This document shows positions 36,390-62,235 of a stretch of 64,000 nucleotides of DNA, one piece after another. Numbering within the stretch: position 1 is the first letter of the stretch; each line of letters opens with the position of its first letter. The DNA comes from an uncultured Spirochaetota bacterium. GTDB taxonomy: Bacteria; Spirochaetota; Brevinematia; Brevinematales; JAOACQ01. A program made the translations under genes and the position numbers. The stretch covers positions 470,788 through 534,787 of the forward strand of contig CAWCLF010000003.1 in NCBI GenBank assembly GCA_963796325.1. Direction: 5' to 3'. The notes beneath the pieces are model-generated. The model was not told where the DNA came from and did no database searches. It worked only from the letters and a program-made list of their open reading frames with translations.

Positions 36390-36538
36390 CGGATCTGTCT
36401 CCCTCGATTTGCCGGAACTTCCCGGATTGAATTAAATTATAGATATTATATGGGCGGTTCCAATAAAATTCAATATCGTTAATAATTAGCATTCTAATTA
36501 TTTATAATTCGCCCAATGGTCACTACTTATCCGCCTTG

Positions 36539-36622
36539 CTTGTACCGGCTTGTCCGGTGCTTGTACCGGCTTGTCCGGTGCTTGTACCGGCTTGTCCGGT
36601 GCTTGTACCGGCTTGTCCGGTG
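36539..36622. repeat. Perfect tandem repeat, 4 x 21 bp (gcttgtaccggcttgtccggt)
   Basis: Units at 36539-36559, 36560-36580, 36581-36601 and 36602-36622. Each unit is two ~10/11-bp sub-repeats (cttgtaccgg / cttgtccggtg). Degenerate half-units follow at about 36630 and 36647. Confidence 0.95.
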
Positions 36623-38289: not shown

Positions 38290-40386
38290 TCACTCCCCTT
38301 TTACGTTTCCATTCATGTCGAACATGACTTCTGAACCTGCCGGATAAACCGTGCCGCCGATCTTCGTATCGTCAGAAAGCGTTCCCTTATAGAGCCTTCC
38401 GTTTTCATAAAAATACAATACGGTCCATTTCTGGAATGTAATGCCTTTGATTTTCGTATCGTCCCGGAGCGTTCCGCTTTTGAGCGCTCCCGAAGGGTAG
38501 AAACTTGCGTAGCTTGTTTTCCTGAAGACTATGTCCTGGCCTTCGCCCTTTAGATAGCTGTCTTCCTCGAGCATGCCGTTGGATAACGTTCCGGATTCGT
38601 ACAGCGTGATCTCGGATCCCTGCCTGAATGCCGTTTCATAAAGGGTGGTGCTGCGCGCAAGGATCCCGCTTCTGACCTTACCCGACCTGTAGAAAGATAC
38701 AGGCCCCGAATATTCGATATCCTGCAGGACAGTTTCATGCGACAGCACCGCACTCTGGACTTTACCGGTATCGTAAAATGAAATGCCGGGCAGATAGATA
38801 TCTGAGGCCTTGCCGCTTTTATCGAAGCCGTTCGTGACCGTTTTAATTAAAGGCTTGAAAGTCACGCCTTCGATGACCTCGGTTTCCCCGGCCAGGGAAC
38901 CGTTTGAAACAATCCCGTTTGAATAGAAGGTGACGACCGTTCCATCCCTGAATACGATAGGGCTGTAGATTTTCATAAGCTCCTGGTCGCCCGACAGGGT
39001 CCCGGATTCGACCTGACCGCCGCGGTAAAACATGATGCTCGTATTCGAAAGGAATTTTATTTTTTTAACGGCAAGGTCCCCGGCTGATAGAGCGTTTTCC
39101 AGCGTCCCCCCTTCATAAAAGCCGACAGGCGTTCCGGCCTCGAACGTGACGCCATGGTCGATCTCGCTTTTGCCCAGCGTCCCGGCCTTTGCCGTTCCGT
39201 CGGGATAAAAATCGACTTCGCATCCGCCCTTGAAAAGCCTGCCGCCGGCGGTTAAATCGGCTTCCGGGGTTCCCGATATCACTTTCCCCTTTTCGTCGAA
39301 GGCGATTTTAAAGCCGTCTTTCCATGCAATCCCGCCGATAACTGTCCCGGCCGAAAGCGTCGCGGACATCACTCTGCCGTTCTCAAAAAAATTTATTTCT
39401 TCGTAGCCCTTGCATGGGGCCCCTTTTATGAGCGAGTCGGCATACAGAACTGCGCTCCGGACCGTTCCGGATTTAAAGAATGTTATGGGGTTTTGCCCCC
39501 TGTAGAGCACTCCGTCTATCCTTGCGTTTTCCGCAAGCTCCATTTTAAGGGGAAGGATCATCTGGCCTGATTTTGAAAGATTGAGCGTCGTCCCGGTCTC
39601 TATTTTCATATGACGCATCCGGATAGATGCCGCGAGGGTCCCGCTTTTAGGTTTTCCGCCGGAATACACGGCGATCTGTTCGTTGCCCCTGAAGGGAATG
39701 CCGCTATAAAGCATGTCCCTGCCGATCTCGATCCTGTCAGGATATACAGGCGCTCCTCCCGAGCCGAACAGGACTTCGGCGCCCTTGTAGAACGGCAAGC
39801 CGGCGATCATAGTATCCCCGGCAAGGGAAACGCTCAAAAGGGCGCCCGAATCGTAAAAACGCACTTCAGAATCCGCCGGAACATTGATTCCATCGATCGG
39901 AGTATCTTTCGCCAGAGTGCCGAAGCTCACATTGCCCGAATCGTAAAAATAAGTATCCATATTCGCTTTAAAATCGATCCCTTTGAATACCGTGTCCTCT
40001 GCAAGCTCCATTTTCGGAGGCATAATAACCCTCCCGTCGCCGGAAAAGGCGAGCGACAATCCGGCCGGGAAAAGTATTCCCTGGATGCGCGTATCGGAAT
40101 CGATTTTTACGGCCGCGATCTTTTTATTTTTAAGATAGATCTCGGTGTAAGGATGGAATTTTATCCCCAGGATTTCCGAATCATCGGTAAGCTTTATATA
40201 GATGAGGTTGCTCCTGGCGTCTATAGCGACTTCCGAACCCTCTTTCAGGAAAAAGCCCTGGTAAGTCCTGTCCTTTTTTAAGGTTATTACAGGCCCGTCG
40301 AAGGGGAATAAAACCTGCGCCGCAAGCGTCAGGATTATGAAAACAAGAATGACTGTCGACTGCCGACTATTGACTGTTGACTTCAT
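38290..40386 (-). CDS. Secreted repeat protein built from ~30-aa units (..I.GI.F..GT.V.FY.SG.L.SGTL..DT..)
   Basis: ATG 40386, preceded by a GGGGGAA RBS 10 nt after the upstream stop, is preferred over the track start at 40449. Signal-like N-terminus MKSTVNSRQSTVILVFIILTLAAQ. More than 20 tandem degenerate repeats. Paralogous to the upstream gene. Confidence 0.65.
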   Translation of the reverse strand: MKSTVNSRQSTVILVFIILTLAAQVLFPFDGPVITLKKDRTYQGFFLKEGSEVAIDARSNLIYIKLTDDSEILGIKFHPYTEIYLKNKKIAAVKIDSDTRIQGILFPAGLSLAFSGDGRVIMPPKMELAEDTVFKGIDFKANMDTYFYDSGNVSFGTLAKDTPIDGINVPADSEVRFYDSGALLSVSLAGDTMIAGLPFYKGAEVLFGSGGAPVYPDRIEIGRDMLYSGIPFRGNEQIAVYSGGKPKSGTLAASIRMRHMKIETGTTLNLSKSGQMILPLKMELAENARIDGVLYRGQNPITFFKSGTVRSAVLYADSLIKGAPCKGYEEINFFENGRVMSATLSAGTVIGGIAWKDGFKIAFDEKGKVISGTPEADLTAGGRLFKGGCEVDFYPDGTAKAGTLGKSEIDHGVTFEAGTPVGFYEGGTLENALSAGDLAVKKIKFLSNTSIMFYRGGQVESGTLSGDQELMKIYSPIVFRDGTVVTFYSNGIVSNGSLAGETEVIEGVTFKPLIKTVTNGFDKSGKASDIYLPGISFYDTGKVQSAVLSHETVLQDIEYSGPVSFYRSGKVRSGILARSTTLYETAFRQGSEITLYESGTLSNGMLEEDSYLKGEGQDIVFRKTSYASFYPSGALKSGTLRDDTKIKGITFQKWTVLYFYENGRLYKGTLSDDTKIGGTVYPAGSEVMFDMNGNVKGE
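40349..40383. repeat. Single-arm 7-bp-unit array (NNGACTN x5) inside the 5' end of a CDS
   Basis: GACT at 40351, 40358, 40365, 40372 and 40379, an exact 7-bp register. Encodes KSTVNSRQSTV of the downstream repeat protein. Confidence 0.8.
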
Positions 40387-46853: not shown

Positions 46854-47249
46854 TTATTGATCCCTGAAATACACCTCTAGCGGTTTAAAATAAAATTCTT
46901 CCCACCCCTTCCTGTATTCCTCCCCCTGGCCTTCGGGAATTTCAGTATGCTTCAGGGTCAGCAAGGTATCTTTGCCCTTTTCTTCAAGGGTTATTTCAAG
47001 TTTTGAATCCGGGCTCTCGATCGGGAATTCGGTTGTCCGCCATGCCTGGACGATCCGGGCGAAGGGTTCAAGCTCGAGCGTGGTTCCCATGATGTAGCCG
47101 TCCCAGGCTTTGAATTTTCCGCCTGCTTCAGGGACGATTTCGGCGGGCGATCCCGTGAATCCCGAATGTTCGCCGCTGTCCAGCCATGCTTTGTAAATCC
47201 GTTCGGCGCTTGCCGGAATCCTGACCGACAACTCAATGGATTCTTTCAT
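46854..47249 (-). CDS. SRPBCC/Aha1-domain protein
   Basis: 131 aa, AHSA1-like pattern (IYKAWLDSGEHSGFTG..., TLLTLKHTEIPEG). Function unknown. Confidence 0.65.
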   Translation of the reverse strand: MKESIELSVRIPASAERIYKAWLDSGEHSGFTGSPAEIVPEAGGKFKAWDGYIMGTTLELEPFARIVQAWRTTEFPIESPDSKLEITLEEKGKDTLLTLKHTEIPEGQGEEYRKGWEEFYFKPLEVYFRDQ

Positions 47250-47334
47250 AATGCCTCCGACATTGGTTTTATTAAAACAAGCTTATATTAAAGTAACTAT
47301 CGCGGGATAAAATATCAAATCCGCTAGATCTGAC

Positions 47335-47425
47335 GGTAGTCGTCAGTCGTCAGTCTGCAGTCGACGGTCGGCAGTGGATAGTTTATAATGTCGACTTTCG
47401 ACTGCCGACTGCTGACTTTCGACTG
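47335..47425. repeat. Inverted 7-bp-unit repeat arrays: (NNNAGTC)x6, 14-bp spacer, (NNGACTK)x5
   Basis: 47335-47376 reads ggtagtc gtcagtc gtcagtc tgcagtc gacggtc ggcagtg. Spacer gatagtttataatg. 47391-47425 reads tcgactt tcgactg ccgactg ctgactt tcgactg. Confidence 0.9.
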
Positions 47426-47492
47426 AATAAGTTGAAAGTTCGGGGTTCAGGATTTAAAATATTAAATTGCCTGTGTTTGAAGGAGCCGGCTT

Positions 47493-49931
47493 ATGGAAAG
47501 GATCTATGATTTTTTAAGCATTGAAAAAAAATGGCGGGAATTCTGGGACTCTGAAAAGACTTTCAGGGTGACCGAGGATCCCTCGTACCCCGATGAGAAA
47601 CGGCTGTATGTACTCGACATGTTTCCGTACCCTTCGGGTTCCGGCCTGCATGTCGGGCATCCCGAAGGATATACGGCCACCGATATTTATACGCGCTTCA
47701 AGCGCCTTCAGGGCTACAACGTTCTTCATCCCATGGGTTTCGATTCCTTCGGGCTTCCGGCGGAGAATTACGCCATAGAGAAGGGTACGCATCCGGCTGT
47801 AATAACCGTTGAAAATATAGACCGCTTCAGGAACCAGATAAAGTCCCTGGGGTTCTCCTACGACTGGGACCGCGAGGTTTCTACGTCGAGCCCCGATTAC
47901 TATAAATGGACTCAGTGGATATTTCTCCAGCTTTTTAAAAAGGGTCTCGCATACGAAGCGGATATGCCGATCAACTGGTGCCCCCACTGCCTGACCGGGC
48001 TGGCAAACGAGGAAGTCAGCGACGGGAAGTGCGACAGGTGTTCGACCCCGATCGAGAGGCGGAGGATCAGGCAATGGATTTTAAAAATAACCGCATACGC
48101 CGAAAGGCTCCTTCTTGACCTCTCTCTCCTCGACTGGCCTGAACCCATCAAGCTCATGCAGGAAAACTGGATAGGAAAGAGCGAGGGGGCCGAGGTCGAC
48201 TTCAGGGTCGACGGGATGGAGGATCTTATCCGTGTTTATACGACAAGGCCCGATACGCTTTTCGGGGCCACGTACATGGTCCTGGCGCCCGAGCATCCGC
48301 TTGTGGAGAAGATAACTGCCCCCGGGAATTCGGATGATGTCGAAATATATATTAATAAAACAGTGTCGAAATCCGAACTGCAGAGGACCGAACTCAACAA
48401 GGAAAAAACGGGCGTTTTTACCGGAGCCTATGCCGTGAACCCTGTAAACGGCGCCAAAATACCAATCTGGATAGCAGATTACGTATTGTGGGGCTACGGT
48501 ACGGGCGCTATCATGGCAGTGCCTGCACATGACGAACGCGATTTCGAATTTGCAAAAAAATTCTCCCTTTCCATTGTCCAGGTCGTATCCGGGGACGGGA
48601 GCGTTTATCCTGCGGTCCGGCCCGAAACGGAAGATGGCATTTCCGTCAATTCCGGGGAATTCAGCGGCATGAAGACTGCCGCCTGCAAAAAAGCTATTAC
48701 CGAATGGCTTGCAAAAAGGGGCCTGGGCCAGAGCAAGGTTAACTACAAGCTTAGAGACTGGGTATTTTCACGGCAGAGGTACTGGGGAGAACCGATACCC
48801 GTCGTGCACTGCGAAAATTGCGGGATAGTCCCGATCGATGAAAAAGAACTTCCCCTCAGGCTGCCCGAAGTCAAATCATACAAACCGACGGGCACGGGGG
48901 AGTCGCCGCTTGCCGGCATCGAAGAGTGGGTAAATACAAAATGTCCGAAATGCGGGGGCCGGGCCCGGCGGGAAACCAACACAATGCCACAGTGGGCCGG
49001 AAGTTCCTGGTATTATATAAGGTTCACCGATCCGCATAACGACAAGGCCCCGGCCGACGCCGCCAATATCAGGTACTGGCTGCCGGTCGACCTTTATATA
49101 GGCGGAGCCGAGCATGCGGTTCTGCATCTGTTGTATGCGCGGTTCTGGCATAAATTCCTGTTCGATATCGGCGTCGTCAATACGCCGGAGCCGTTCATGT
49201 CGCTCAAGAACCAGGGTATGATTTTAGGCGAGAACGGCGAAAAGATGTCCAAGTCGCGGGGCAACGTTGTCAACCCGGACGATGTGGTAAATGAATACGG
49301 GGCCGACACTCTCAGGATTTACGAGATGTTCCTGGGGCCGCTTGCTTCGGATAAGCCATGGAACATGCAGAGCATAATCGGGATCAAGAGGTTCCTCGAC
49401 AAGGCCTGGAAGCTTTTCGAAAAAAATACGGCTGATGATGCGCCCGTGCCTCTTGAGCTTTTAAAACTCCGGCACAGGACAGTCAAAACGGTTGCCGAAA
49501 AGATAGACGCCCTTGAATTCAACACTGCAGTAAGCTCGCTGATGATATTTGTCAACGCGCTTTCAAGGGAGGATGTGCTCAACAGGCCGCTCCTCCGCGA
49601 TTTCACTGTCATTCTTCACCCGTTCGCCCCCTTTATTACCGAAGAAATGTGGGAGATCTGCGGGGAGAAGCCTTCCGTATCGGCCGCTGCATGGCCGGAA
49701 TACGATCCGGAAATGATAAGAGAGGATTTCATAGCCATTGCCGTCCAGGAAAACGGGAAGCTCCGCGACACGGTCCGGATGCCGGCCGGTGTATCCGCCG
49801 ATGAAATGATAAAACAGGCCATGGAGAGTAAAAAAGTGAAACTTGCGCTGGAAAATAAAGAAGTGGTGAAGATAATACCGGTGCCGGGCAGGGTCGTAAA
49901 TATCGTGACGAAACCCATGACAGGCAAATAA
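47493..49931 (+). CDS. leuS: Leucine--tRNA ligase
   Basis: HIGH-type HVGH, KMSKS, CP1 editing domain region, zinc-binding Cys pairs; 812 aa. Confidence 0.96.
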
Positions 49932-50016: not shown

Positions 50017-50940
50017 ATGGATCAGAATAAGGAAGCGGTGCAGCTTTCCCGTCTTCTGAAAAGCCCTGCACCACAGCATGTAATCTCGGAAGTCAAAAAG
50101 ATTTTCCAGTACTCCTACCCGTCACATTCCTTCTCGAAAATCCTGAGTAATTTCAAGAATATCGTCAATCTCTTCGACGGGAAATTCCCCGGATACCAGG
50201 CCTGCAATACTATGTACCACAATCTCGGCCATACGCTGGACGCCCTGCTGGCCGCAGCCCGCCTTGCCGACGGCTACAACCTTTCGTCCGGAAACATGAG
50301 CTGCGAAACCATGGTAGACCTTCTTCAGGCAGCCCTCTTCCACGATACGGGTTATATACTCGAGGACTGGGACAGGACCGGGACCGGCGCCAAGTACACG
50401 AAAAGCCATGTCGAAAGAAGCATGATGTTCATTCAGAAGAACAGGCCTGCCCTCCAGCTTGACAGCAGGGAAGTCGCCGTTATATCGAGGATAATTTCCT
50501 GCACGGGGCTCCAGGTAAACTGGAAGGATATCCCCTTTAACAGCCGGGACGAGGAGATAGCGGGCGCGATACTCGGTACGGCCGACCTTTTAGGCCAGAT
50601 GTCCGACAGGTTTTACCTTGAAAAACTGCACTACCTTTACGACGAATTCAGGGAAGCCGGCATACAGGGATATGATACCGAATTCGATATAATACAGAAA
50701 ACTGCGTTTTTCTACAAGATGACGACCGACAGGTTTTCAAGCGATCTTATGAACGTAAACGAGTATGCGAAGGTTCATTTCAGGGCGAGGTTCGGGATGG
50801 ATTCCAACCTCTACATGGAATCGATATCCAGGCACATCGATTACCTGAAGGGAATCATCGAGGACAGCACTTCGAACTTCAGGAACAAGCTCAAGCGGAA
50901 AGCTGCCTATATACCTCTTTATTACAGCCAGGCGCACTGA
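50017..50940 (+). CDS. HD-domain metal-dependent phosphohydrolase
   Basis: H...HD signature: HNLGHTLD followed by FHDTGY. Specific function unknown. Confidence 0.7.
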   Translation: MDQNKEAVQLSRLLKSPAPQHVISEVKKIFQYSYPSHSFSKILSNFKNIVNLFDGKFPGYQACNTMYHNLGHTLDALLAAARLADGYNLSSGNMSCETMVDLLQAALFHDTGYILEDWDRTGTGAKYTKSHVERSMMFIQKNRPALQLDSREVAVISRIISCTGLQVNWKDIPFNSRDEEIAGAILGTADLLGQMSDRFYLEKLHYLYDEFREAGIQGYDTEFDIIQKTAFFYKMTTDRFSSDLMNVNEYAKVHFRARFGMDSNLYMESISRHIDYLKGIIEDSTSNFRNKLKRKAAYIPLYYSQAH

Positions 50941-50955
50941 CGTCTGTCGGCAATC

Positions 50956-51086
50956 GAAAGTCGGCAGTCGACAGTCAACTTCAGTCAAGAGTCGAGAGTC
51001 GAGAGTGACATTTGCCGGTAAATAATTGCCGGTTGTTTGTTAATCAGCACTCGTTCTATACGACTGTTGACTGTTGACTGTTGACT
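50956..51086. repeat. Inverted 7-bp-unit repeat arrays flanking a 46-bp core, between convergent genes
   Basis: AGTC at 50959, 50966, 50973, 50983, 50990 and 50997. The core contains ttgccggt twice (51012 and 51026). GACT at 51062, 51069, 51076 and 51083 (cgactgt tgactgt tgactgt tgactg). Confidence 0.9.
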
Positions 51087-52074
51087 GAGGTAAGAGCCCG
51101 ACTTTTTTGTAAACCTTCCCGAGCGTTTTGCCGGAGATTTCCGAGGCCTTTGCCGCCCCTTCCCGAGCGGTCCTGAGTAAAAATTCCTTGTCTTTGCGGA
51201 ATTCCGCGTAGCGGCACCGCACAGGCGCGAACAGCCTCTCGATCGATTCGGCCAGGTCTTTCTTGAAAACAGCATAACCTTTGCCGGAATACCCGGCGGC
51301 TATCTCTTCCATCGGAAAGTCCCTCACGCTACTCATAATTGTCATCAGGTTGAAGATGCCCGAGCCGTCGTCCTTCAGGGGGTAATCTGCGCCGCTTCCC
51401 GTAACGGCGCCCTTAATCTTGCGGCCGATCTCCTCGGGGCTGTCCAGGACTGATATATAATTCCGCTCGTTGGCGTCGGATTTGTCCATCTTCTGGGACG
51501 GATCGAGAAGTTTTTTTATGCGGCCGCCGCTTTTCAGCACCATGGCTTCGGGCACCGTGAAAACAGGTCCGAAGCGGTTGTTGAAGCGCAGCGCGATGTC
51601 GCGGGCCAGTTCCACATGCTGGCGCTGGTCCTCCCCTACCGGGACGATATCGGTATCGTAAAGGAGTATGTCGCCCGCCATGAGAACGGGGTAGGTATAG
51701 AGGCCCGCATTGATATTTTCAGGATTTTTTTTGGATTTATCCTTGAACTGGGTCATGCGGTTAAGCTCCCCCGTATAAGTGAAGCATCCCAGGATCCAAG
51801 CAAGCTCCGCGTGCGCGCTTACATGAGACTGGAAGAATACAATGCTCTTATCCGGGTCGATCCCGCATGCCAGGAACAGCGCCATGTAATCGAAACAGCG
51901 GGACCTGAAACCGGCGGGGTCCTGCAGTGTCGTCATCGAGTGAAGATCGACGATGGAAAAGACGCAGTCGTATTCGTCCTGCATGGCTACCCAGTTCCTG
52001 ACCGCGCCGATATAGTTGCCTATTGTCATGACGCCCGTCGGCTGTATTCCGCTGAACACCCTTTTTTTTGCCAT
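51040..52074 (-). CDS. trpS: Tryptophan--tRNA ligase
   Basis: GIQPTG plus TIGNYIG (HIGH-equivalent) and KMDKSD (KMSKS variant). The last ~16 codons (..PQSTVNSQQSYRTSAD) are encoded by the heptamer array. Confidence 0.93.
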   Translation of the reverse strand: MAKKRVFSGIQPTGVMTIGNYIGAVRNWVAMQDEYDCVFSIVDLHSMTTLQDPAGFRSRCFDYMALFLACGIDPDKSIVFFQSHVSAHAELAWILGCFTYTGELNRMTQFKDKSKKNPENINAGLYTYPVLMAGDILLYDTDIVPVGEDQRQHVELARDIALRFNNRFGPVFTVPEAMVLKSGGRIKKLLDPSQKMDKSDANERNYISVLDSPEEIGRKIKGAVTGSGADYPLKDDGSGIFNLMTIMSSVRDFPMEEIAAGYSGKGYAVFKKDLAESIERLFAPVRCRYAEFRKDKEFLLRTAREGAAKASEISGKTLGKVYKKVGLLPQSTVNSQQSYRTSAD

Positions 52075-52191: not shown

Positions 52192-52211
52192 AACTGACCC
52201 GGCAGTTAAAT

Positions 52212-52299
52212 GGAGAGATGCCCGAGCGGTCGAAGGGGGCACCCTGCTAAGGTGTTGTACCCCATAAGGGTACCGAGGGTTCGAATCCCTCTCTCTCCG
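52212..52299 (+). tRNA. tRNA-Ser (anticodon GCU), class II with long variable arm
   Basis: Hand-folded. Acceptor GGAGAGA/TCTCTCC. Anticodon stem GCACC/GGTGT with loop CTGCTAA (GCT). Variable arm tgtaccccataagggtacc. T arm GAGGG-TTCGAAT-CCCTC. Discriminator G. No encoded CCA. Confidence 0.9.
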
Positions 52300-52567
52300 A
52301 ATCGAACTTACCGCCTAAATGTTGTATAGTCAACCACATCAACCCCGTGCTACGGAAAAATTAATTTTAGCGATCGAGAGGTAACAGTTTAAGGTAAAGA
52401 AGGATCGAATAGATGGGAAAAAGCAATAATTTGAATAAAAAGTAACATTTTTCTACGTGAAATATCAGATAATATATTCATTAAGAACTGGAAATTTAAA
52501 GAAAGAGAGCATAGTACTGGCGTGGTCATAGGACTAAGGTTAGAAATCGTAAGAGAGAATCCGTAAT

Positions 52568-53686
52568 TTAAGCCGGAAGCGCTGACAGCCTGTAGTAGTG
52601 ATGTACCAGTCCGCCGAGGATGGGTTTTGAGACAATCCTGCCTTCGGTTTGAGGAATATAGCCTTTGGGAACCTGAAGGCCGATGCCCTGGTGAGGCCGC
52701 AGGCTGTTGTAGTAATTAATATATTCAGCAAGGATATTCCGGAGCTGGTTCTCTGTGAATATTATAAACCAATCCAAGCATTGCCGGCGCAGTGTCCCGA
52801 CGAAACGCTCGGCGACGGGGTTCATATTGGGAGAATACGGAGAAATCCTGATATGTTTGAAATGGAAAAGCTTCCAGCAGAACCAGTAAAACTCGCCCGA
52901 GCCGTCGTGAAGAAGATAAGCTTTAGCAATTCCCATTTCCTCAAGTCTTTGCTCGAAATAATAGAACCGGTTTTTAAGGAATTGAATTGTCGGATGTTTT
53001 GTTACGGCGAACTGGATAATTTCCCTTGTCCGGTAATGGATAATGAAGAACACATAGAACCGGGAGCCTGAAAGTGAATCGACGGTAAGAAAATCGCAGG
53101 CGAACAGGGAACGGATATGAGAAGAAATGAAAACCTTCCAGGAGGGGAACGAAGGAATTTTACCTTGTTTTCTGAATTGGTATAGGACATTGCGGATGGT
53201 TTTCTCATCGAGATATATGCTTAGCTTATGAAGTTCTCCGAGTATGAAAAGAGGACCGCGAAGCGGGTTGTCGAGCTTTATTTGAAGAATAAGCTTCCGG
53301 ACATCGAGGGGAACAGGAGGCCGGCCGGGGGATGAAGCATCAGGTTTGAAAGTCCATCTTTTTTTAATAAGGATCTTGAACCACTTGAGGATTGCCGAAG
53401 GATGGACGATGGAAGAAAGATGCGGTTTAAAGCATTCTAACTGTGAAAGGACGATGAAGAAAATTCTGTCGAACCAATCGATGAAGGGATGTTTTTTTGA
53501 AGATCGTTTAAGTATTTCGATTTCTTTTTGAAGGCGGATATTGTCGATACGCAAATCAAGTATAATTTTCTCATATTCTGAAAGACTTCTGGCAGAGTGA
53601 TGAAACAAAGGTTTTAAAATGGAGAAGCAAAAGCTGTAGAAAAGGATGAAAAAGAGTTTAAACATGGTGGCCTTCCGATTTAACAA
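52568..53686 (-). CDS. rve/DDE integrase-type transposase (different family from the three-copy IS)
   Basis: Candidate D-D-E residues in FLTVDSL, LLHDGSGEF and NPVAERF. C-terminal YNSLRPHQGIG and GGLVHHYYR tail. IS ends not delimited. Confidence 0.75.
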   Translation of the reverse strand: MLNRKATMFKLFFILFYSFCFSILKPLFHHSARSLSEYEKIILDLRIDNIRLQKEIEILKRSSKKHPFIDWFDRIFFIVLSQLECFKPHLSSIVHPSAILKWFKILIKKRWTFKPDASSPGRPPVPLDVRKLILQIKLDNPLRGPLFILGELHKLSIYLDEKTIRNVLYQFRKQGKIPSFPSWKVFISSHIRSLFACDFLTVDSLSGSRFYVFFIIHYRTREIIQFAVTKHPTIQFLKNRFYYFEQRLEEMGIAKAYLLHDGSGEFYWFCWKLFHFKHIRISPYSPNMNPVAERFVGTLRRQCLDWFIIFTENQLRNILAEYINYYNSLRPHQGIGLQVPKGYIPQTEGRIVSKPILGGLVHHYYRLSALPA

Positions 53687-53818
53687 AAAATTCTTTTTTA
53701 TTTGATATAGATAGACGAAGAGTATAAAATAATCAGGTAAAACACTAAATTATTTTTACCCATGAATTATTTCTGTTAAAGTAAAAAATAGAAAAGTATT
53801 CGTTTTATAAGGGGATAC

Positions 53819-54079
53819 ATGAAAATTCACATTGAACCACACACACTTGAACGGGCGGAAGAAAGAGGAACAGACCGGGCTGAAATTATTGAAGTGATTG
53901 AAACAGGATTACCGGTAGAAGCTAAATACAAAAGAATAGGTAAATCGAAAATATTTAATTTTCAAAGACAGAGACTGGGCAAATATTATGAACAAAAGCG
54001 TGTCGAAGTATTTTATAATATTGAAAATGATGAAATTACCACCGTGACGGTATATGTGTTTTATGGTAAATGGCAGTAA
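53819..54079 (+). CDS. DUF4258-like small protein (putative toxin of a two-gene module)
   Basis: 86 aa. The N-terminal H..ERAEERG... pattern resembles DUF4258. Overlaps the next gene by 10 nt. Confidence 0.5.
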   Translation: MKIHIEPHTLERAEERGTDRAEIIEVIETGLPVEAKYKRIGKSKIFNFQRQRLGKYYEQKRVEVFYNIENDEITTVTVYVFYGKWQ

Positions 54080-54300
54080 AGGAGGAAAACATGCAAATAA
54101 TATATAATCCTGGCACAGACCTTTTATATATACGCATTGATGATAAAAAGCAGGATGTGATTAATCAGAGGGTAAGCGAGGAAATGGTGCTGGATATTGG
54201 CGAAGACAATAAAATTGTCGGCATCGAAATACTGGATGCTTCAAAAAGTGTGGATTTAGATAAAGTATTACCTATTAAATACAGTTATGAAAACTCGTAG
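54070..54300 (+). CDS. DUF2283-like small protein (putative antitoxin partner)
   Basis: YNPGTDLLYIRIDD...IVGIEILDASK matches my memory of the DUF2283 pattern (Y.D...D.LYI...G.EIL.AS). 76 aa. Confidence 0.55.
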   Translation: MAVKEENMQIIYNPGTDLLYIRIDDKKQDVINQRVSEEMVLDIGEDNKIVGIEILDASKSVDLDKVLPIKYSYENS

Positions 54301-54427
54301 ATGCGGCGAAGTAATATCTCAATTCTGTAATGAAAATGTAAGCCTTATTAATACGACAGCGCAGGAAGGGTCGTAATGAAGGCCTGCGGGGGCAGAAGGG
54401 AAACTTACAGGTACGACCAGCGTGACC

Positions 54428-55930
54428 AGCGGCACTGGGTGCGAATCTGAAGTAAAAGTCCAGGATTTTGGACTAAAGTAAATAGGCAGATATAAGGATA
54501 AAAAAGAGAAGAAAACACAGGCAATTGAAGGTTGTTTATAGAACTTAGGTAAAGCGAATGTGAAGCAAGGGTAAAAGAAGTCTCTTTAATGCCTTGATTT
54601 TACACAATCCCTGCTAAAACTGGCATATTGGGCAGGAAGCGATGCGGTTTTCCTGAATTCTTCTCAAACGTGCCAGCTCGAATTGAGATCGGATAAAATC
54701 AAGGTCGGGCAGTTTGCCTGAATAAGCCTCGGCGGGAGTCTGGTATTGATGGGCATGATGAGGGCGGACATGGTTGTATTCATGGATAACCTTCTCAAGA
54801 TATTTATCAAGGTCGTTTAGATCGCGGTACTGCCGCAGGAATAGCCAGGAGTATTTCAGGCTTTTATTCACGGCTTCGATCATGCTGTTTGAAAAACGGA
54901 TATGTTTTTGAGCGATCAGATGCTTTATGGTAATTTTATCCTCAAGGTATTGCTTTATTGTGTCGTTATCGTTTTCAGGACCTCCGTCGGTAAGGAAAAT
55001 GATATAAGGGTCTATGGTATCGCTTTGTTTTTTAACGATACTGGAATAAGCATCTTTAAGGTTTGAGAGAGCGATTTCAGCAGAAACACGGAGGGATACT
55101 TTATAGGAGATGACAAACCTGGAAAAGTTATCTGCGATAAGATAAATATAGGCGGTAAGTCCGTCCAATAGTTTCAGGCAGGTAATATCGGCGTGAATTA
55201 TCTCGTTAGGCCGGAAGGCCCTGATACCTTTAGATTGGCGCGGTTTTTTAAAACGTTTCCCGGTAAATCCGAATAACCTGGAATACTTGTACCATGAACC
55301 TCTGCCGATGAATAATGCTTTTAACCTGACGGCTTCGGAATGGACGGCATGGACAGGCCAGCCTGTGTATTTCGGATCAAGCAGAAATTTCTTCATAATG
55401 TTTAGCTCTGACCCTGAAACCTGGTTGGGCCAGACCTTGGGGCATTTATGGATGGGGGAGATAAGGCACCTGGCTTTGACCTGGACGGCCCAGTTGTAAA
55501 ATGTGGAGAGTTTAAGTTTAAAAAATCTGCAGGCCCTTTCAATGGGGATCTTAAAACGGTTGGAGAGGAAATAAACGGCTTTGACGGTCATGTTTTGAAT
55601 GTTATCAAGATAGCCGGAAGGCTTATGGATGAGGGAATCCTGTATTTTTTTATAAAAGCGATAGACATGGCATAGGATGGTAATAGTTATTATCAATTTT
55701 CTGGAATGAGCAAATGTCTTAACCAGAGGCAATAATTGAGATTGAAAATCCCTGTACTCATAACCGAATAGAGAAGAAAGGTTGTAATTCAAGAGATGGT
55801 AGTATGTGGATTTTGAAATCGTTGAGCGGACGGAATTGTAAGAAATAGAGCCTATCTGAAGGGCGAGAGTAAAGTTATGGTCGTATTTTTTATGAGAGCG
55901 CATAAGGGAAACTCCGAATGTTATTATTAT
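54428..55930 (-). mobile_element. IS element copy A (~1.5 kb, single 429-aa rve/DDE transposase)
   Basis: Boundaries are taken from where identity with copies B and C begins (AGCNNCACYGGGTGCGAATCTGAAG at 54428) and decays (~25-30 bp upstream of the ATG). Clear terminal inverted repeats not found by eye. Confidence 0.7.
54614..55903 (-). CDS. IS transposase, copy A (rve/DDE)
   Basis: Candidate D-D-E residues in IIHADIT, FLTDGGPEN and IEAVNKSLK. C-terminal YNHVRPHHAHQYQTPAEAY. About 20 aa differences from copy B by manual comparison. Confidence 0.85.
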   Translation of the reverse strand: MRSHKKYDHNFTLALQIGSISYNSVRSTISKSTYYHLLNYNLSSLFGYEYRDFQSQLLPLVKTFAHSRKLIITITILCHVYRFYKKIQDSLIHKPSGYLDNIQNMTVKAVYFLSNRFKIPIERACRFFKLKLSTFYNWAVQVKARCLISPIHKCPKVWPNQVSGSELNIMKKFLLDPKYTGWPVHAVHSEAVRLKALFIGRGSWYKYSRLFGFTGKRFKKPRQSKGIRAFRPNEIIHADITCLKLLDGLTAYIYLIADNFSRFVISYKVSLRVSAEIALSNLKDAYSSIVKKQSDTIDPYIIFLTDGGPENDNDTIKQYLEDKITIKHLIAQKHIRFSNSMIEAVNKSLKYSWLFLRQYRDLNDLDKYLEKVIHEYNHVRPHHAHQYQTPAEAYSGKLPDLDFIRSQFELARLRRIQENRIASCPICQF

Positions 55931-56024
55931 CCGCCGAAGGGTTGTGGAAATAGGCTCTGACCCGGCAGACTGTCAGGATAGCAACGGGAAGGCGGGTGAA
56001 ATAGATGGGCTGTGTTATGAGTTG

Positions 56025-56405
56025 CTATTCATCCAGCAGTTTTATAACGTTCTGAGTGTTGATAAAGTTATTAAAGCCTTTTTTCGGCAAATTTTCAATG
56101 AGTGCTTTATCATTGGTCCATAATGGATAACCGAATTCAACACAGAGAGCAATAAAAGGTGTGTCTTTTTCATCAATTCCCTTACAAAGTTCAATAGCTT
56201 TATCGTAGGCGAATTTTCTGACAGCAATTTTTGGAATTATTATAATTTCCTCGAAAAGATTTTTGATGAACAATCTAAAATCAGAGATCGGCAGTTTCCT
56301 TTTCTTTAAAATGACATCTTCGTATTTTTCAAGTTCTTTCAGGGCAAAGTCAGGCATGTAAAAATGAATTTTCTTAACCAGTTCAATATATCTCCGGTTG
56401 CCCGG
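56025..56405 (-). pseudogene. PIN-domain protein, 5'-truncated by IS copy B
   Basis: C-terminal PIN pattern IDEKDTPFIALCVEFGYPLWTNDKAL. The frame runs without a start into the IS-B terminus at 56406, and the N-terminal segment with the first catalytic Asp is missing. Confidence 0.6.
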
Positions 56406-57908
56406 AGCAACACCGGGTGCGAATCTGAAGTAAAAGTCCAGGATTTTGGAATAAAGTAAATAGACAGATATAAGGATAAAAAAGAGAAGAAAACACAGGC
56501 AATTGAAGGTTGGTTATAGAACTTATGTGAAGTGGAAGTGAAGCGAGTGTAAAAGAAGTCTCTTTAATGCCTTGATTTTACACAATCCCTGCTAAAACTG
56601 GCATATTGGGCAGGAAGCGATGCGGTTTTCCTGAATTCTTCTCAAACGTGCCAGCTCGAATTGAGATCGGATAAAATCAAGGTCGGGCAGTTTGCCTGAA
56701 TAAGCCTCGGCGGGAGTCTGGTATTGATGGGCATGATGAGGGCGGACATGGTTGTATTCATGGATAACCTTCTCAAGATATTTATCAAGGTCGTTTAGAT
56801 CGCGGTACTGCCGCAGGAATAGCCAGGAGTATTTCAGGCTTTTATTCACGGCTTCGATCATACTGTTTGAAAAACGGATATGTTTTTGAGCGATCAGATG
56901 CTTTATGGTAATTTTATCCTCAAGGTATTGCTTTATTGTATCGTTATCGTTTTCAGGACCTCCGTCGGTAAGGAAAATGATGTAAGGGTCTATTGGATTG
57001 CTCTTATTTTTAACGATACTGGAATAAGCATCTTTAAGGTTTGAGAGAGCGATTTCAGCAGAAACGCGGAGGGATACTTTACAGGAGATGACAAACCTGG
57101 AAAAGTTATCTACGATAAGATAAATATAGGCGGTAAGGCCGTCCAATAGTTTCAGGCAGGTAATATCGGCGTGAATTATCTCGTTGGGCCGGAAGGCCCT
57201 GATACCTTTAGATTGGCGCGGTTTTTTAAAACGCTTTCCGGTAAATCTGAATAACCTGGAATACTTGTACCATGAATCTCTGCCGATGAATAATGCTTTT
57301 AACCTGACGGCTTCGGAATGGACGGCATGGACAGGCCAGCCTGTATATTTCGGATCAAGCAGAAATTTCTTCATAGTGTTAAGTTCGGATTCTGAAAGCT
57401 GGTTAGGCCAGACCTTCGGGCATTTATGGATGGGGGAGATAAGGCACCTGGCTTTGACCTGGACGGCCCAGTTGTAAAAAGTGGAAAGTTTAAGTTTAAA
57501 AAATTTGCAGGCCCTTTCAATGGAAATCATAAAACGGTTGGAGAGGAAATAAACGGCTTTGACGGTCATGTTTTGAATGTTATCAAGATAGCCGGAAGGC
57601 TTATAGATTAGTAAGTCCTGTATTTTTTTATAAAAGCGATAGACATGGCATAGGATGGTAATAGTTATTATCAATTTTCTGGAATGAGCAAATGTCTTAA
57701 CCAGAGGCAATAATTGAGATTGATAATCCCTGTACTCATAGCCGAATAGAGAAGAAAGGTTGTAATTCAAGAGATGGTAGTATGTGGATTTTGAAATCAT
57801 TGAGCGGACGGAATCGTAAGAAATAGAGCCTATCTGAAGAGCGAGGGTAAAGTTGTGGTCGTATTTTTTGTGAGAGTGCATAAAAAAACTCCGGTTATTT
57901 TATAGAAA
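56406..57908 (-). mobile_element. IS element copy B
   Basis: Same terminus (agcaacaccgggtgcgaatctgaag) and internal sequence as copy A; same orientation. Confidence 0.7.
56592..57881 (-). CDS. IS transposase, copy B (rve/DDE)
   Basis: 429 aa, ~95% identical to copy A by manual comparison. Confidence 0.85.
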   Translation of the reverse strand: MHSHKKYDHNFTLALQIGSISYDSVRSMISKSTYYHLLNYNLSSLFGYEYRDYQSQLLPLVKTFAHSRKLIITITILCHVYRFYKKIQDLLIYKPSGYLDNIQNMTVKAVYFLSNRFMISIERACKFFKLKLSTFYNWAVQVKARCLISPIHKCPKVWPNQLSESELNTMKKFLLDPKYTGWPVHAVHSEAVRLKALFIGRDSWYKYSRLFRFTGKRFKKPRQSKGIRAFRPNEIIHADITCLKLLDGLTAYIYLIVDNFSRFVISCKVSLRVSAEIALSNLKDAYSSIVKNKSNPIDPYIIFLTDGGPENDNDTIKQYLEDKITIKHLIAQKHIRFSNSMIEAVNKSLKYSWLFLRQYRDLNDLDKYLEKVIHEYNHVRPHHAHQYQTPAEAYSGKLPDLDFIRSQFELARLRRIQENRIASCPICQF

Positions 57909-58342
57909 TTTGGCATAAAAATAGATAAGAATATAAAATAAAAGCAACGGATATGCAATTATTTTTATCGGTCATGGTTATAGGAATAAGGATAGTCAGA
58001 TTATCCCCGCATTACGAGGAAGCGTAATGAGGCTGCGAAACGAAGTGAGCATAGCCGAATTATCACTGAGCGATAGCGAAGGGATAGAGCCGCCGGCGAA
58101 AAACGGCAGTAAGCGGGCGGACTGTTTGAGGGACTTTTTGCCATTTACAATACGAATCTTATTTTTTACAAAGATTCGGCAATAAGATTTTAGCAAAAAG
58201 TACCGAGTTCCGCCCGCAGCCGTTTTGAGCCTGTGCGGCTCAAGCTTCTGAGTACAGCGGGGAAAGTTTTCTTTCTGGTTCGCTTTCTTTTGCTTTTTCA
58301 AAAGAAAGCGAACGGTACTACGACCCCTCCGCCGGAAGGTTT

Positions 58343-60127
58343 ATGACCACAGACCCCATAAGCGACCCGTCGAGGCGGTACTCGCCCGCGGGGCTCAACA
58401 GGTACGTTTACTGCTACAACAGGCCGCTGTATTATACCGACCCGGAGGGAAGGTGGTACCTCGATTTAGGAATCATCGGGATAGGAAACGACGATACTAC
58501 AGGAAACTTCATATTCGGCGTAGGGTTCGGTTTAAGCAATTTTGTCTGGCAACAGGACAGCAGCGGGAATATTTCGAACTACCAGACTTTCGTGGGGCTT
58601 AACATAGCCAACCAGAAGCTCGGAATAGGATACAGCTATGACGAAAAGGCATTATATGACGAGGAAGAATTATCATTCGGAATACAATATTACTGTTTCA
58701 ATGCCAATATCAGTTTTTATCACAAGAAGACGTGGAACAGCAAAGAAGAATGGTGGAGCGTGAGCGGCAGCGCGGGAATCAGCTATGAAGGGATAGGTGT
58801 CGGAGCTGAGGCGGGGATCAGCTCATATACCAACAGCCAGGGACAAACGAAAAAAACCAGCGATATGGGGGTGTACGCGGGTTATAACGAAAACGGCGTA
58901 TTGGTAGGCGTTAATGCACAGTGGAACTATGACACTTACGGGATGTATACGGGAATGAATTTGGGCGTGAGTATAGGCTCTACTTTTGATGGCGGCAACG
59001 GCGAATTATCTTTCGGAACCAACGCATACTTTGACGCTCAGGGGAGATTCATTGGAATTACCGGATCTGTTTCAATACAGCATAGCATTAGTGCTTACGG
59101 CGTAAATATCGGCAGCGGAAGCTTCGGCCTGACCTTTGGAAATGTAAACGGCGGCTGGGTACTGGGGGGCGGAATCAATCTTAATCCGGGAGTGAATCTT
59201 GACAATATGGCGAATGCCGAAGCAGCAAAGATGCCGTATAGTACAAGGCAGACCCTCATAAGTGCAGGAGTGACCCTGCCTGAGTATGGGATAGGGTCGC
59301 CTAACGGGGCAAACTTACCCGGTTTCAACGACTGGCTGATGTTACAGCCTCAGGAAGGTCAAATCAGCACAAATGTTGATACAGGTCAGCAGTATATATA
59401 TCAAAATGGAGAATGGGTTAATTATAATAAGAATTTGAATAATTCAGGAAGTATAATAGAAGTATCACAAACTCAGACAATATCTCTTGAAGAAAATGCT
59501 TCCAAAGCATATGAAAATTTAATGGAGGCTGTAAAATCACAGGATCATGATCCAGATGATATTGTGGGAATAATGTTTTTGAATAAAGAAAAAGATGTTT
59601 CTGGCTTTGGCCATAATGCGATTGCTTTTATTTACGCGGATGGGTCGGTTGATATTTATTCATACAGAGCCACTAATACTGATGATTTTACTATTTTATT
59701 AGGATCAAATGTTCCTGCTACAATGGATAAAAATCATTATGAGGCAGATGATTTTAGTACATTTTTATCTACACAACCACCGAATGACAAATCTTATAAC
59801 CGCTATATAATGATTCCTGTCGATGCAGAATCGGGACAGGCAATGTTAAACAGAGCAGAAGATTATCATATTAACGCTGGTACATATAACATAGTAGGAC
59901 ATAATTGTGAACATGTAGCACAGGACATACTTTCTTACGGCGGCCTCAGTTTTGCTCCGACAAAAAGCGATCAAAATGATGTAAATATATATTTATATGG
60001 ATTTCCTTCCGCAGTTTATAATTATTTTATTTCAACAGGTACGATACCGAACTCTGCGTATAATATAGGTGTAAATGTTGCAAATTTTGAGGGATGGAAT
60101 TTCGGATATATAGGAGTACCAAAATGA
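58343..60127 (+). CDS. Orphan Rhs/YD-repeat C-terminal tip with polymorphic toxin domain (LRAT/NlpC-P60-like His...NCEH)
   Basis: The frame is open from 58229. 58313-58460 encodes RYYDPSAGRFMTTDP...NRYVYCYNRPLYYTDPEGRW, the last YD repeat and the Rhs core end motif. No Rhs repeats lie upstream. A Gly-rich ~300-aa region is followed by GFGHNAIAFIYADG ... YNIVGHNCEHVAQDI. Confidence 0.7.
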   Translation: MTTDPISDPSRRYSPAGLNRYVYCYNRPLYYTDPEGRWYLDLGIIGIGNDDTTGNFIFGVGFGLSNFVWQQDSSGNISNYQTFVGLNIANQKLGIGYSYDEKALYDEEELSFGIQYYCFNANISFYHKKTWNSKEEWWSVSGSAGISYEGIGVGAEAGISSYTNSQGQTKKTSDMGVYAGYNENGVLVGVNAQWNYDTYGMYTGMNLGVSIGSTFDGGNGELSFGTNAYFDAQGRFIGITGSVSIQHSISAYGVNIGSGSFGLTFGNVNGGWVLGGGINLNPGVNLDNMANAEAAKMPYSTRQTLISAGVTLPEYGIGSPNGANLPGFNDWLMLQPQEGQISTNVDTGQQYIYQNGEWVNYNKNLNNSGSIIEVSQTQTISLEENASKAYENLMEAVKSQDHDPDDIVGIMFLNKEKDVSGFGHNAIAFIYADGSVDIYSYRATNTDDFTILLGSNVPATMDKNHYEADDFSTFLSTQPPNDKSYNRYIMIPVDAESGQAMLNRAEDYHINAGTYNIVGHNCEHVAQDILSYGGLSFAPTKSDQNDVNIYLYGFPSAVYNYFISTGTIPNSAYNIGVNVANFEGWNFGYIGVPK

Positions 60128-60157
60128 TAGCGATATATTTTTGGTTTTTAATGTTAT

Positions 60158-61024
60158 TTGCTGCAGAAAAAAATAGTATTTGTTAAAAGCTTACCGGGTG
60201 AGGTAATTTTACCGAATATATCAACAAATGATGATACCGGAATTCTGATAATTAATATGCATGATGGAACGGAACGTCAGATATTGAAAGGGCTTAAATT
60301 TACCCTGGGCGAATGGAACAGAGATAAAAAAAAGATATTATTGTTTAATGATTATTATATTTCAGGCTTTGTCACCAGTTCTGATTATTCTGTATTTGAA
60401 TACGATATTGAAAAGAGTGTTATGAGGCCTATACTTAAAGAGGTTCATTATACTTCTAGACATGAAATAAATTACGAAAGAATCCGTTATATACCTGGCA
60501 AAAATGCAATAAGTTATATTTTTGCTGATGGTTATAAATTACATGATTATAGAAATTACCTTCATATTTATGATCTTGATAGGAAAAAAGATGAAAAGTT
60601 GTTTAGAACATCTAGTTATTATTCATGGGATTCTAACGGTACATCGATTTACTATAATCCAATGAAAGCATATGCTGTTGATAATCATATATTTGAATAT
60701 AACGTTATGACGAAAGAAACAAAAGAACTATTTACAGGTTATACTCCCGAATGTTCTCATAATGGCGAATACATTGCTTATACCAAATATAACGGAGATC
60801 TTGTAGTGAGAGAAATGAAAAACGGGAAGGAATGGCCGATAATGATTGAGGGTTATAATTACCTCTTTTCACCTGATGATAAGTATATAATGTTAAGTAA
60901 AGATTGGAATGAATTGCCTATAGAAAAAGCGAAACAAGTACTATATTACGAATTCAAAACCGGAAAGAGTGGTATATTTATATATGATCGTTCTGGAAAA
61001 GTAAATTGGTATGATTGGAATTGA
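60158..61024 (+). CDS. Candidate immunity protein, beta-propeller-like (PD40/TolB-type degenerate repeats)
   Basis: Lies directly downstream of the toxin. Repeats such as HNGEYIAYTKYNGDLVV and FSPDDKYIMLS. The track start is TTG. An ATG at 60124 in another frame encodes a TM-like 20-mer, separated from this frame by an A7 tract. Confidence 0.5.
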   Translation: MLQKKIVFVKSLPGEVILPNISTNDDTGILIINMHDGTERQILKGLKFTLGEWNRDKKKILLFNDYYISGFVTSSDYSVFEYDIEKSVMRPILKEVHYTSRHEINYERIRYIPGKNAISYIFADGYKLHDYRNYLHIYDLDRKKDEKLFRTSSYYSWDSNGTSIYYNPMKAYAVDNHIFEYNVMTKETKELFTGYTPECSHNGEYIAYTKYNGDLVVREMKNGKEWPIMIEGYNYLFSPDDKYIMLSKDWNELPIEKAKQVLYYEFKTGKSGIFIYDRSGKVNWYDWN

Positions 61025-61773
61025 ACGCAAAAGCAATGATTTTCTCGTACTCTACTAAGAAAATAATTTTAAGTAATAAAAGAAATTGAAGGGCTTATTC
61101 CAGCAGAAATTCAGTAGTAAAACTGCCCAATGTTGTAATACACATAACGCACAAAATGTGAATGGGAGCAGTCACGCAATTCAGTCCCATTTGGAGTGAT
61201 ATATTATTGTTATCTAATGAGATAAAAAGATCAATCGCAGTCCCTTTCCAAGATAAAATACGAGAATATTGCATAAAATATGGTAGTATTAACCGCTTAT
61301 ATAGAGCATTTTAACCATAAAATGGGACTATTGTGCGGGTAGAAGTCCCACATGTAAACGGCTCCCTGGAGGCACATAAATTCGAGGACAGGTATCGAAT
61401 TTATGTTGGGAAACATAACGCACAGCGGTGTATGAGATATCAGGCCCTGATGAATATTGTAGGGATCTTGAGCGATTTAGGATGACACTATACGCAACAG
61501 CAATGCGTGTTATAACTTCATAAATATCAATATGTTTACAAAAACCGCCGGTATTTGTAACTCCATCTTCCGGTATGAAAGCATCGGGTCAAAAGTGGAC
61601 CCTAATTGTATATATGCCGGATAGTTCAACCGATATTTTGATATGATTTCCAGGGGGAGGGTTGACTGCGAATAGGCTGCGGAGACAGGCTCTAACCCGG
61701 CGGCCCGAGAGGCGGGCAAAGGGATATCGAGGGCTTTCTAAACGACAATATTTTGCAGGAATTGAGGACAATG

Positions 61774-62235
61774 TTATTTAGAAAGCAGTTCTTCGGGGGA
61801 ATGAACGGTAATTTCTTTATAAATCTCGAAGTCTTTTTTATCGTAAGTAAGGATGTTTTTGATTCCATTTTCCAGCATAGTAGCCGTGATTGCGGCATCG
61901 TGGATATTTTTACCGGAGATTTGATATTTTTCGGCAATTTTCATGAGCCGTTCAATAGTTTCAATTTCGATGTTTAAAACCTCGAAGTTTTGCCTGAACT
62001 CTTTGACCTTCCGGTTTGCCTCTTTTATTGGCAGAGGATTTTTGAGGAATTTCTTATTAGTTGAAACCGAGAGAAACTCTCTTATTATCTGTGTAGAAAT
62101 GAAAAGATGATGCTGACTTTCAACCAACTGCCTTAATATCTCAACGGAACTTGAATATTTTATGGGATCGAAGTCTTCAAGAGAAGCGTATACGAGGATG
62201 TTAGTATCGATAAAAAGCTTAGATTCTCGGTTCAT
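61774..62235 (-). CDS. vapC: PIN-domain toxin (VapC-like)
   Basis: N-terminal KLFIDTNILVYA with catalytic Asp; later HDAAITATM. ATG 62235 is preferred over 62334 and overlaps the upstream antitoxin gene by 17 nt. Confidence 0.75.
   Translation of the reverse strand: MNRESKLFIDTNILVYASLEDFDPIKYSSSVEILRQLVESQHHLFISTQIIREFLSVSTNKKFLKNPLPIKEANRKVKEFRQNFEVLNIEIETIERLMKIAEKYQISGKNIHDAAITATMLENGIKNILTYDKKDFEIYKEITVHSPEELLSK

Follow-up and report, generated by a model that had tools for sequence, protein, structure and literature searches.

The window, i.e. the whole 64,000 nt stretch of DNA analysed here, is from an uncultured Spirochaetota bacterium (GenBank assembly GCA_963796325.1, contig CAWCLF010000003.1, positions 470,788–534,787). 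At positions 47335–47425 it contains a paired array of 7-nt units, located between the divergent starts of an AHSA1/SRPBCC gene (47249) and leuS (47493), as a preliminary description made from the sequence alone had stated. The left arm (47335–47376), detected in the sequence, by TRF and by an inverted-repeat search, has six NNNAGTC-type units, ggtAGTC gtcAGTC gtcAGTC tgcAGTC gacGGTC ggcAGTG. The inverted 7-bp architecture first proposed for it stands, but not the claim that all six units end in AGTC; four have the exact core and the other two have one mismatch (GGTC and AGTG). An AT-rich 14-nt gap, gatagtttataatg (47377–47390), is the predicted hairpin loop and has A or T at 11 of 14 positions, with TATAAT within. 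The right arm (47391–47425) consists of five NNGACTK units, tcGACTt tcGACTg ccGACTg ctGACTt tcGACTg, and all five have the exact core, in agreement with the initial account.

Period 7 is found in both arms by TRF, with 6.0 and 5.3 copies. The inverted-repeat search aligns 36 nt of the two arms at 78% complementarity, close to an earlier hand count of 26 of 35. The suspected potential for a long hairpin is also confirmed by folding. RNA folds of 47325–47435 have energies of −52.5 (+ strand) and −44.6 (− strand) kcal/mol, with z-scores of −6.0 and −6.5, and DNA folds of the same segment give −25.4 and −23.0, with z about −5. With Rfam 15 at gathering score, the sole match in the window is a tRNA and there is none at the heptamer arrays; the E-value mode returns sub-threshold miRNA-hairpin look-alikes (29 bits vs a cutoff of 88). 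An assembly artefact is unlikely, as an independent Logan re-assembly (run ERR10755942) matches with 100% identity across 14,748 bp, a segment that spans three of the four array loci discussed below, the two assemblies apparently stemming from the same sequencing data.

A leuS promoter-like sequence, TTGAAA-17-TAAAAT (47432–47460, + strand), is directly downstream of the right arm, which ends 7 nt upstream of the −35-like box. It was recognized by a promoter scan and by comparison with the closest relative (L122, LeuS 78%), where the promoter motif aagttgaaagttc is conserved upstream of leuS and the repeat is missing. Since the leuS promoter begins just past the right arm, the array is likely to be in neither flanking mRNA. 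Judged from sequence, it is probably upstream of both divergent promoters, and would have little effect at the RNA level.

The same architecture recurs in the window. Three consecutive GACT-N3 units are matched 16 times vs 0 in 100 dinucleotide shuffles, and all matches are confined to four loci: 32123–32215, 40351–40382, 47335–47425 and 50946–51087. These are all at 32–51 kb of the 72 kb covered (window plus an 8.4-kb extension, out of a 602-kb contig), and there are no arrays in the 8.4 kb that flank the window in the same genome. At each of the four loci TRF finds period 7 with 3.4–6.0 copies, which places them among heptanucleotide tandem repeats, taken as at least 3–4 head-to-tail copies, and three of the four have paired opposite-strand arrays of the Xanthomonas/Geobacter type. 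The second pair is formed by a degenerate AGTC-type left arm (32123–32165), evident from sequence, inverted-repeat search and fold, and a right arm of six exact GACT units (32177–32215). Five exact GACT units make up the single arm at 40351–40382. In the third pair the AGTC-type left arm (50946–51007) is in two registers (50945–50976 and 50983–51007) and begins about 6 nt past the stop of an Npun_R2479-family gene; the right arm (51062–51087) is a perfect repeat, (GACTGTT) × 3.7, also found by TRF. Recurrence had been noted initially at 32124–32216, at 50956–51086 and, as a single arm, at 40349–40383. This stands, except that the third locus really begins near 50946 and that the register is broken within its left arm.

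Arm order is fixed in the window pairs (3/3). In each of the three the left arm is degenerate and the right arm is perfect (cores 6/6, 5/5 and 4/4), and 20 of 20 right-arm units of the window keep the GACT core exactly, with variable spacers. The four perfect-core arrays (32177–32215, 40351–40382, 47391–47425 and 51062–51087) all read GACT on the + strand, and every partner arm has decayed. This could reflect strand-specific maintenance, the sample being small. RNA folds of the three pairs range from −38 to −68 kcal/mol, with z-scores of −3.9 to −7.6; no structure is predicted by folding for the single arm at 40351–40382. The loops and spacers of the three pairs have no common sequence, and an 18-nt stretch, GACTGTCGACTGCCGACT, is common to two loci.

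With respect to termination, no intrinsic terminator, i.e. a G+C-rich stem with a direct U-tract, was found at 47200–47520 or 32030–32260. A scan of 50880–51160 shows only a separate small hairpin between the arms, the big hairpin having no U-tract. This small terminator-like hairpin, GCCGGTAAATAATTGCCGGT plus a T-rich tail (51014–51043, + strand), is canonical-looking, is at a convergent locus and overlaps the TrpS stop codon.

Three array copies, those starting at 40351, 51062 and 32177, reach into coding sequence. The array at 40351–40382, which is 15 nt past the stop of the upstream gene, encodes on the − strand the peptide STVNSRQSTV, which forms codons 3–12 of a 698-aa MORN-repeat protein and is in the signal-peptide n-region. 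The protein starts MK-STVNSRQSTV-ILVF... and its ortholog starts MKKIILSAMF..., without this peptide, and the array, which falls within codons 2–12, is therefore an in-frame insertion that added ten codons. The array at 51062–51087 overlaps the last codons of a TrpS-type ORF (...GLLPQSTVNSQQSYRTSAD, then stop) and encodes most of its C-terminal tail (...PQSTVNSQQSYRTSAD, then stop). At the second pair, the last unit of 32177–32215 supplies the TAG stop (32214–32216) of a 271-aa methyltransferase ORF on the − strand. All three have the look of additions tolerated at gene edges, and not of conserved regulators.

Several other features of the window may be mentioned. A tRNA-Ser(GCT) gene (52211–52300) is followed by a low-GC region that extends to 64000 (0.38–0.41 vs about 0.50). 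Region 52211–64000 has three rve-integrase transposase ORFs, a PIN-domain ORF and a truncated ParA-like ORF; two 429-aa rve ORFs are in tandem IS copies, 1978 bp apart and 96–100% identical over 300 nt. It has the appearance of an island of mobile elements at a tRNA gene. At 36537–36622 there is a perfect 21-bp tandem repeat, TGCTTGTACCGGCTTGTCCGG × 4.1 with 100% matches, which has a methyltransferase gene on one side and a small ORF on the other and is unrelated to the heptamers. A 120-bp repeat × 3 with 67% matches (16806–17167), inside the − strand ORF 16391–17224, probably corresponds to a domain repeated within the protein.

The Brevinematales/Brevinematia (Spirochaetota) provide the best named LeuS relatives, and the window proteins are singletons in clustering at 90% identity. 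Relatives with LeuS 73–78% identical, too diverged for empty sites to be defined, show no GACT arrays in approximately 67 kb of mostly syntenic DNA, other than one weak 5-unit run. As the arrays are missing at syntenic loci of the closest relatives, recent lineage-specific gains are indicated. From these sequence comparisons, the arrays look like a recent gain in one Brevinematia lineage, in at least four copies, and do not have the appearance of dedicated leuS control. Of two marks of a dispersed element family named in the preliminary description, i.e. further copies and conservation in relatives, the second is lacking, but the family itself is widely dispersed, as described below. Two contigs of the comparison set (L124 and L125, positions 1–10000) have identical LeuS and wholly different upstream genes (dnaN...RtcB vs chorismate synthase...PHP), which suggests that one contig is a chimeric assembly or is rearranged.

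The repeat had been thought to match no known class. This view does not hold, as the arrays fit the heptanucleotide tandem repeats (STRR/LSSR), whose paired form has been described in Xanthomonas and Geobacter metallireducens. Among the long simple-sequence repeats of bacteria heptamers dominate, and it has been proposed that they arise by slippage. STRR are three heptanucleotides first found in Calothrix PCC 7601. The STRR units CCCCAGT and CAACAGT rotate to NNN+AGTC, and the (GACTGTT)n arm at 51062–51087 is a reverse-complement rotation of the STRR3 unit CAACAGT. Similarities to STRR are the 7-nt tandem arrays and, as far as the 72 kb covered show, their dispersed, intergenic distribution, but STRR are mainly homogeneous direct arrays of heterocystous cyanobacteria, whereas those in Brevinematia are heterogeneous and mostly paired. 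By a strict definition, which calls for an STRR1–3 unit in a heterocystous host, just 51062–51087 equals an STRR3 rotation, and thus the arrays belong to the wider heptamer class and are not STRR proper.

Xanthomonas GGGAATC repeats form 70–75 opposite-strand pairs per genome, always in one orientation and with stem-loop potential; they are found chiefly near stop codons and in gaps between aligned ORFs; most are transcribed, and their length differs from one species to another (Rehm et al., 2015; PMC4692102). Both systems share dispersed 7-nt tandem arrays, close opposite-strand pairs and fixed orientation. However, the Xanthomonas unit is G-rich, forms G-quadruplexes and is near-identical from unit to unit, whereas the spirochaete arrays have a GACT core, variable spacers and no G-runs. 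In G. metallireducens, MTYCTGA heptamers, about five per site, form eight pairs that were annotated as putative ‘class 3 global regulator binding sites’ and are absent in the sister species (Aklujkar et al., 2009; PMC2700814). Fifteen of the 16 Geobacter sites have five units and the arm order is fixed in 8 of 8 pairs; it matches that of the window, with the left site on the − strand and the right one on the + strand. MTYCTGA rotates to GAMTYCT, e.g. GACTCCT. In contrast to the window arrays, the Geobacter units have a constant spacer (YCT) and a core that is either GACT or GAAT; the IHF/HU regulator role is the authors' proposal.

TAACTGA direct repeats are found in Beggiatoaceae, Cyanobacteria and Bacteroidetes (MacGregor, 2015; PMC4679880). 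The heptamer differs from one of the window units by a single base (AACTGAT vs GACTGAT), and both types of repeat are lineage-specific and intergenic, adjoin gene starts and have a patchy spread. They differ in that TAACTGA repeats are nearly all direct (169 direct sets vs one indirect), with 2–6 identical units just before start codons. Heptamer repeats of the form GGGGA(C/T)T are present in Nostoc, where deletion of the heptamer repeat alters recO reporter output and a role at recF has been suggested (bioRxiv 10.1101/2022.06.06.494920).

The most plausible functional likeness is to REP/BIME/REPIN elements, given the dispersed intergenic inverted pairs, the hairpins at gene ends and the fixed orientation. 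REP elements are 20–40-nt imperfect palindromes with a GTAG head; they are RAYT-mobilized, are found in Proteobacteria and form hairpins in operon mRNAs. Unlike REPs, the heptamer arrays have no GTAG head and no common palindrome; their arms are internally periodic and the copies share only the heptamer core. A Pfam scan of 20 ORFs (27.5–63.5 kb), together with the Logan-annotated genes at 37.5–52 kb, shows no RAYT in these segments. The early exclusion of CRISPR, MITE and REP remains sound. CRISPRs have 23–47-nt direct repeats with unique spacers of similar length, and that layout is missing in these inverted arrays of a 7-nt unit; for a MITE there is no conserved body common to the window copies, and no flanking target-site duplication is seen among them. 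G-quadruplex and GANTC-methylation readings are ruled out on sequence. Protein-binding sites with short conserved cores and free spacers exist in the RNA targets of HutP and TRAP, the HutP site UAG-N4 having a 7-nt period, and ω-repressor operators consist of contiguous 7-bp heptads, direct or inverted, each bound by one subunit. These are single-locus sites of known proteins, unlike the dispersed, gene-independent arrays described here.

A genome scan for five consecutive GACT-N3 units, with one genome per species, has among the matches listed Cyanobacteria, Bacteroidota, Acidobacteriota, Planctomycetota, Verrucomicrobiota, Gemmatimonadota, Actinomycetota and others, and there are at least 120 matches of GACT-core arrays in viral contigs. 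Perfect simple repeats (GACTAAT, GACTCCT, GACTGGG and GACTGTT) account for about 40% of arrays among the matches listed. Many other arrays keep GACT and vary the spacers, with an extreme in Pedobacter, where 10 units have 8 different spacers. BLAST searches with the element yielded one unannotated partial match in phage collections and none in plasmid collections.

The arm order is also biased outside of the window. In viral contigs, AGTC × 3, a gap of 8–38 nt and GACT × 3 are found in this order at 30 sites vs 4 with the arms swapped, or about 24 vs 4 after duplicate removal; at genome loci the ratio is 13 vs 3 among the matches listed. Median fold z-scores of 31 non-redundant GACT pairs are −7.4 and −6.8. 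The context of 43 GACT pairs was assessed by a long-ORF heuristic, and of 25 that could be classified, 20 are between co-directional genes, three are convergent and two are divergent. Co-directional pairs often span the gap, being 0–10 nt from the stop codon and 13–25 nt before the next start. With only two divergent cases in 25, the locus at 47335–47425 is in a rare context. Single arrays adjoin the 3′ ends of long ORFs about twice as often as the 5′ starts (133 vs 63) and show no sense preference at ORF ends (67 vs 66), the ORF heuristics for array position being crude. Phage cases gave the idea of sense 5′-UTR elements before the SD/ATG, which was rejected on an overall count of 10 vs 10 within 30 nt.

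Two phage-like contigs, L162 (3853–6340) and L186 (2676–6594), have heptamer arrays in almost all inter-cistronic gaps. On the mRNA their units, AGTCAGG and AGTCGGA, appear as AGGAGTC and GGAAGTC, and are Shine-Dalgarno-like tandem motifs directly before the next start. An interpretation as tandem Shine-Dalgarno arrays is true of these AGGAGTC-type units in phage contigs, but not of the window units.

The complementarity of spacers is higher in true pair arms than in arms re-paired between loci (0.58 vs 0.38; 0 of 500 shuffles, pooled), although the pooled value may reflect merely that each genome has one unit type. Selection for the hairpin through spacer complementarity was set aside, as the per-pair test is underpowered and mostly non-significant.

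Arm polarity is still stronger in GATT-core pairs, (GATTNNN)n, gap, (NNNAATC)n, with 95 viral sites vs 0 swapped (viral loci L379–L457); examples are L381 1791–1862 and L391 1865–1935. The 5′ arm of these pairs is G/T-rich by keto content in 94 of 94 and has G>C by G-C skew in 93 of 94. In swapped GACT pairs the G-C skew rule holds in 6 of 6 and keto content splits 3:3. An explanation of polarity by a G/T-rich, G>C 5′ arm, which could avoid exposure of C-rich RNA to Rho, was rejected because only 23–25 of 36–37 ordinary GACT pairs conform; of the three window pairs it fits one. Strand skew therefore explains arm polarity only partly. As a control of core specificity, GTCA also gives at least 120 matches, as does the scan with which it is compared, and it overlaps TGACT and STRR2-like GTCAYTN arrays. 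In viral GTCAYTN arrays (e.g. L293 3270 and L268 741) the last positions are variable, and therefore partly variable heptamers extend beyond the GACT core. GTCAYTN is a rotation of the cyanobacterial STRR2 unit TTGGTCA.

How can these observations be interpreted? The locus at 47335–47425 may well be a paired heptanucleotide locus of the STRR/LSSR kind, made in place and with a REP-like structural role that we infer, and not an operator of leuS or the SRPBCC gene; we favour this reading tentatively. Its layout is (NNN-AGTC)n, gap, (GACT-NNN)n, in which one unit type is present on opposite strands. The 7-nt units would arise and extend in place through slippage or local conversion, with some constraint that would preserve the GACT core and let the 3-nt spacers drift. 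When single-stranded, as RNA or DNA, the pair would snap into a long hairpin interrupted by mismatches at intervals of about 7 bp. The usual effect would be that of a REP-like intergenic stem-loop, which acts between cistrons and at the ends of transcripts as a barrier or insulator, and copies would persist where they are tolerated, as in intergenic DNA, a signal-peptide n-region or a protein C-terminus. Counting against this reading, the transcribed strand at 32123–32215 folds no better than the other strand, the big hairpins are not followed by U-tract terminators, and the copy at 47335–47425 is probably not transcribed. The exactness of the core with variable spacers and the polar arm order, taken up below, also speak against it.

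Explanations that tie the repeat to its neighbouring genes are the weakest. A regulator-binding palindrome specific to leuS and/or the SRPBCC gene is suggested by the position of the array between the divergent starts and 7 nt before the −35-like box, and ctxAB, with TTTTGAT heptads in 7-bp arrays upstream of the promoter, is a precedent; but L122 retains the leuS promoter without the repeat, the same repeat is at unrelated genes and the divergent context is the rarest for GACT pairs (2 of 25 classifiable), which makes an operator very unlikely. Equally improbable is a contingency locus, in which slippage in unit number would switch genes, for instance by 7-nt frameshifts in the 698-aa MORN protein or by altered promoter spacing. 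The array in codons 3–12 of a signal-peptide protein would suit such a switch, and heptamer repeat numbers do differ between related strains in other taxa. However, neighbouring units differ (four spacer types in five units), so that slippage would be inefficient; copy numbers are equal in the two assemblies, which are apparently from the same data and hence not independent; and most copies are poorly placed for gene switching. Of the three options originally listed, namely a slippage-prone VNTR, a protein-binding array and a structured RNA or single-stranded DNA element, phase variation by a VNTR is therefore the least supported. A mobile hairpin, i.e. a non-autonomous REPIN/MITE-like pair whose heptamer arms act as TIRs for a transposase or HUH enzyme, would account for the fixed arm order, the presence here and absence at syntenic sites of relatives, the insertion-like overlap with gene ends, GACTGTCGACTGCCGACT in two loci and the occurrence of pairs in viral contigs. 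Yet the loops and spacers in the window are unalike, arm lengths vary, single arms exist, and neither a target-site duplication nor conserved ends are visible. In addition, no RAYT, IS200-type or other candidate is among the window ORFs scanned, and the rve transposases at 52.5–57.9 kb are part of ordinary IS copies. Mobilization of this type is thus improbable.

The main rival to a paired heptamer locus made in place is a periodic binding array, where each 7-nt unit is the site of one subunit and GACT (or AGUC) is read on one strand. The reader might be TRAP/HutP-like, a contiguous array of cold-shock protein or, on duplex DNA, ω-like, with the partner arm competing through hairpin formation. 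An invariant core with variable spacers is unpredicted by neutral slippage plus decay and points to sequence-specific recognition. Similarly, both arm orders would give an equal duplex, and thus hairpin stability alone fails to explain the polarity (30 vs 4). Together, invariant core and fixed order favour a strand-specific reader or maker. Typical arrays of about 5–6 units (five in 15 of 16 Geobacter sites) and the GACT reading of the four perfect-core window arrays on the + strand, with decayed partners, are consistent with this. Binding has also been proposed for the related repeats, by the Geobacter authors for global-regulator sites (PMC2700814), by MacGregor for S1, Csp or CsrA at TAACTGA repeats (PMC4679880), and in Nostoc, where a binding partner is inferred (bioRxiv 10.1101/2022.06.06.494920). 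On the other hand, no candidate protein has been found and contexts are heterogeneous; relatives with the same genes do not have the arrays, so that there is no conserved regulon; and spacer types differ by genome and GATT and GTCA cores behave alike, which speaks against one universal reader. A binding array is therefore possible but unlikely. It is more doubtful still, though conceivable, that the polar pair itself is the functional unit, i.e. a hairpin of GACT sites read in single-stranded form by a strand-specific enzyme or multimeric binder that also propagates or maintains it. Such a unit would cover the invariant core, the free spacers, the arm order (30 vs 4, and 95 vs 0 for GATT) and the patchy spread. 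If true, it would be a cross-phylum, phage-borne REPIN analogue with a different chemistry.

In many bacteria no long simple-sequence repeat is as common as the heptamers, for which neither a function nor an origin has gained acceptance in 35 years. The kind of heptamer found here is already described; what is new is the fixed order, the position in gaps between co-directional genes and the strong folds across phyla and viral contigs. The findings extend the heptamer class to the Brevinematia, a lineage for which we found no earlier report, and the window supplies clean examples of arrays gained recently that alter the ends of proteins. The comparison yields testable rules that any mechanism must explain, namely a set order of the arms, placement in gaps between co-directional genes, and a constant core whose spacers are free to vary. 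With these rules one could look for the factor behind the reading or making of heptamer repeats, and of them the cross-phylum polarity is most worth pursuing.
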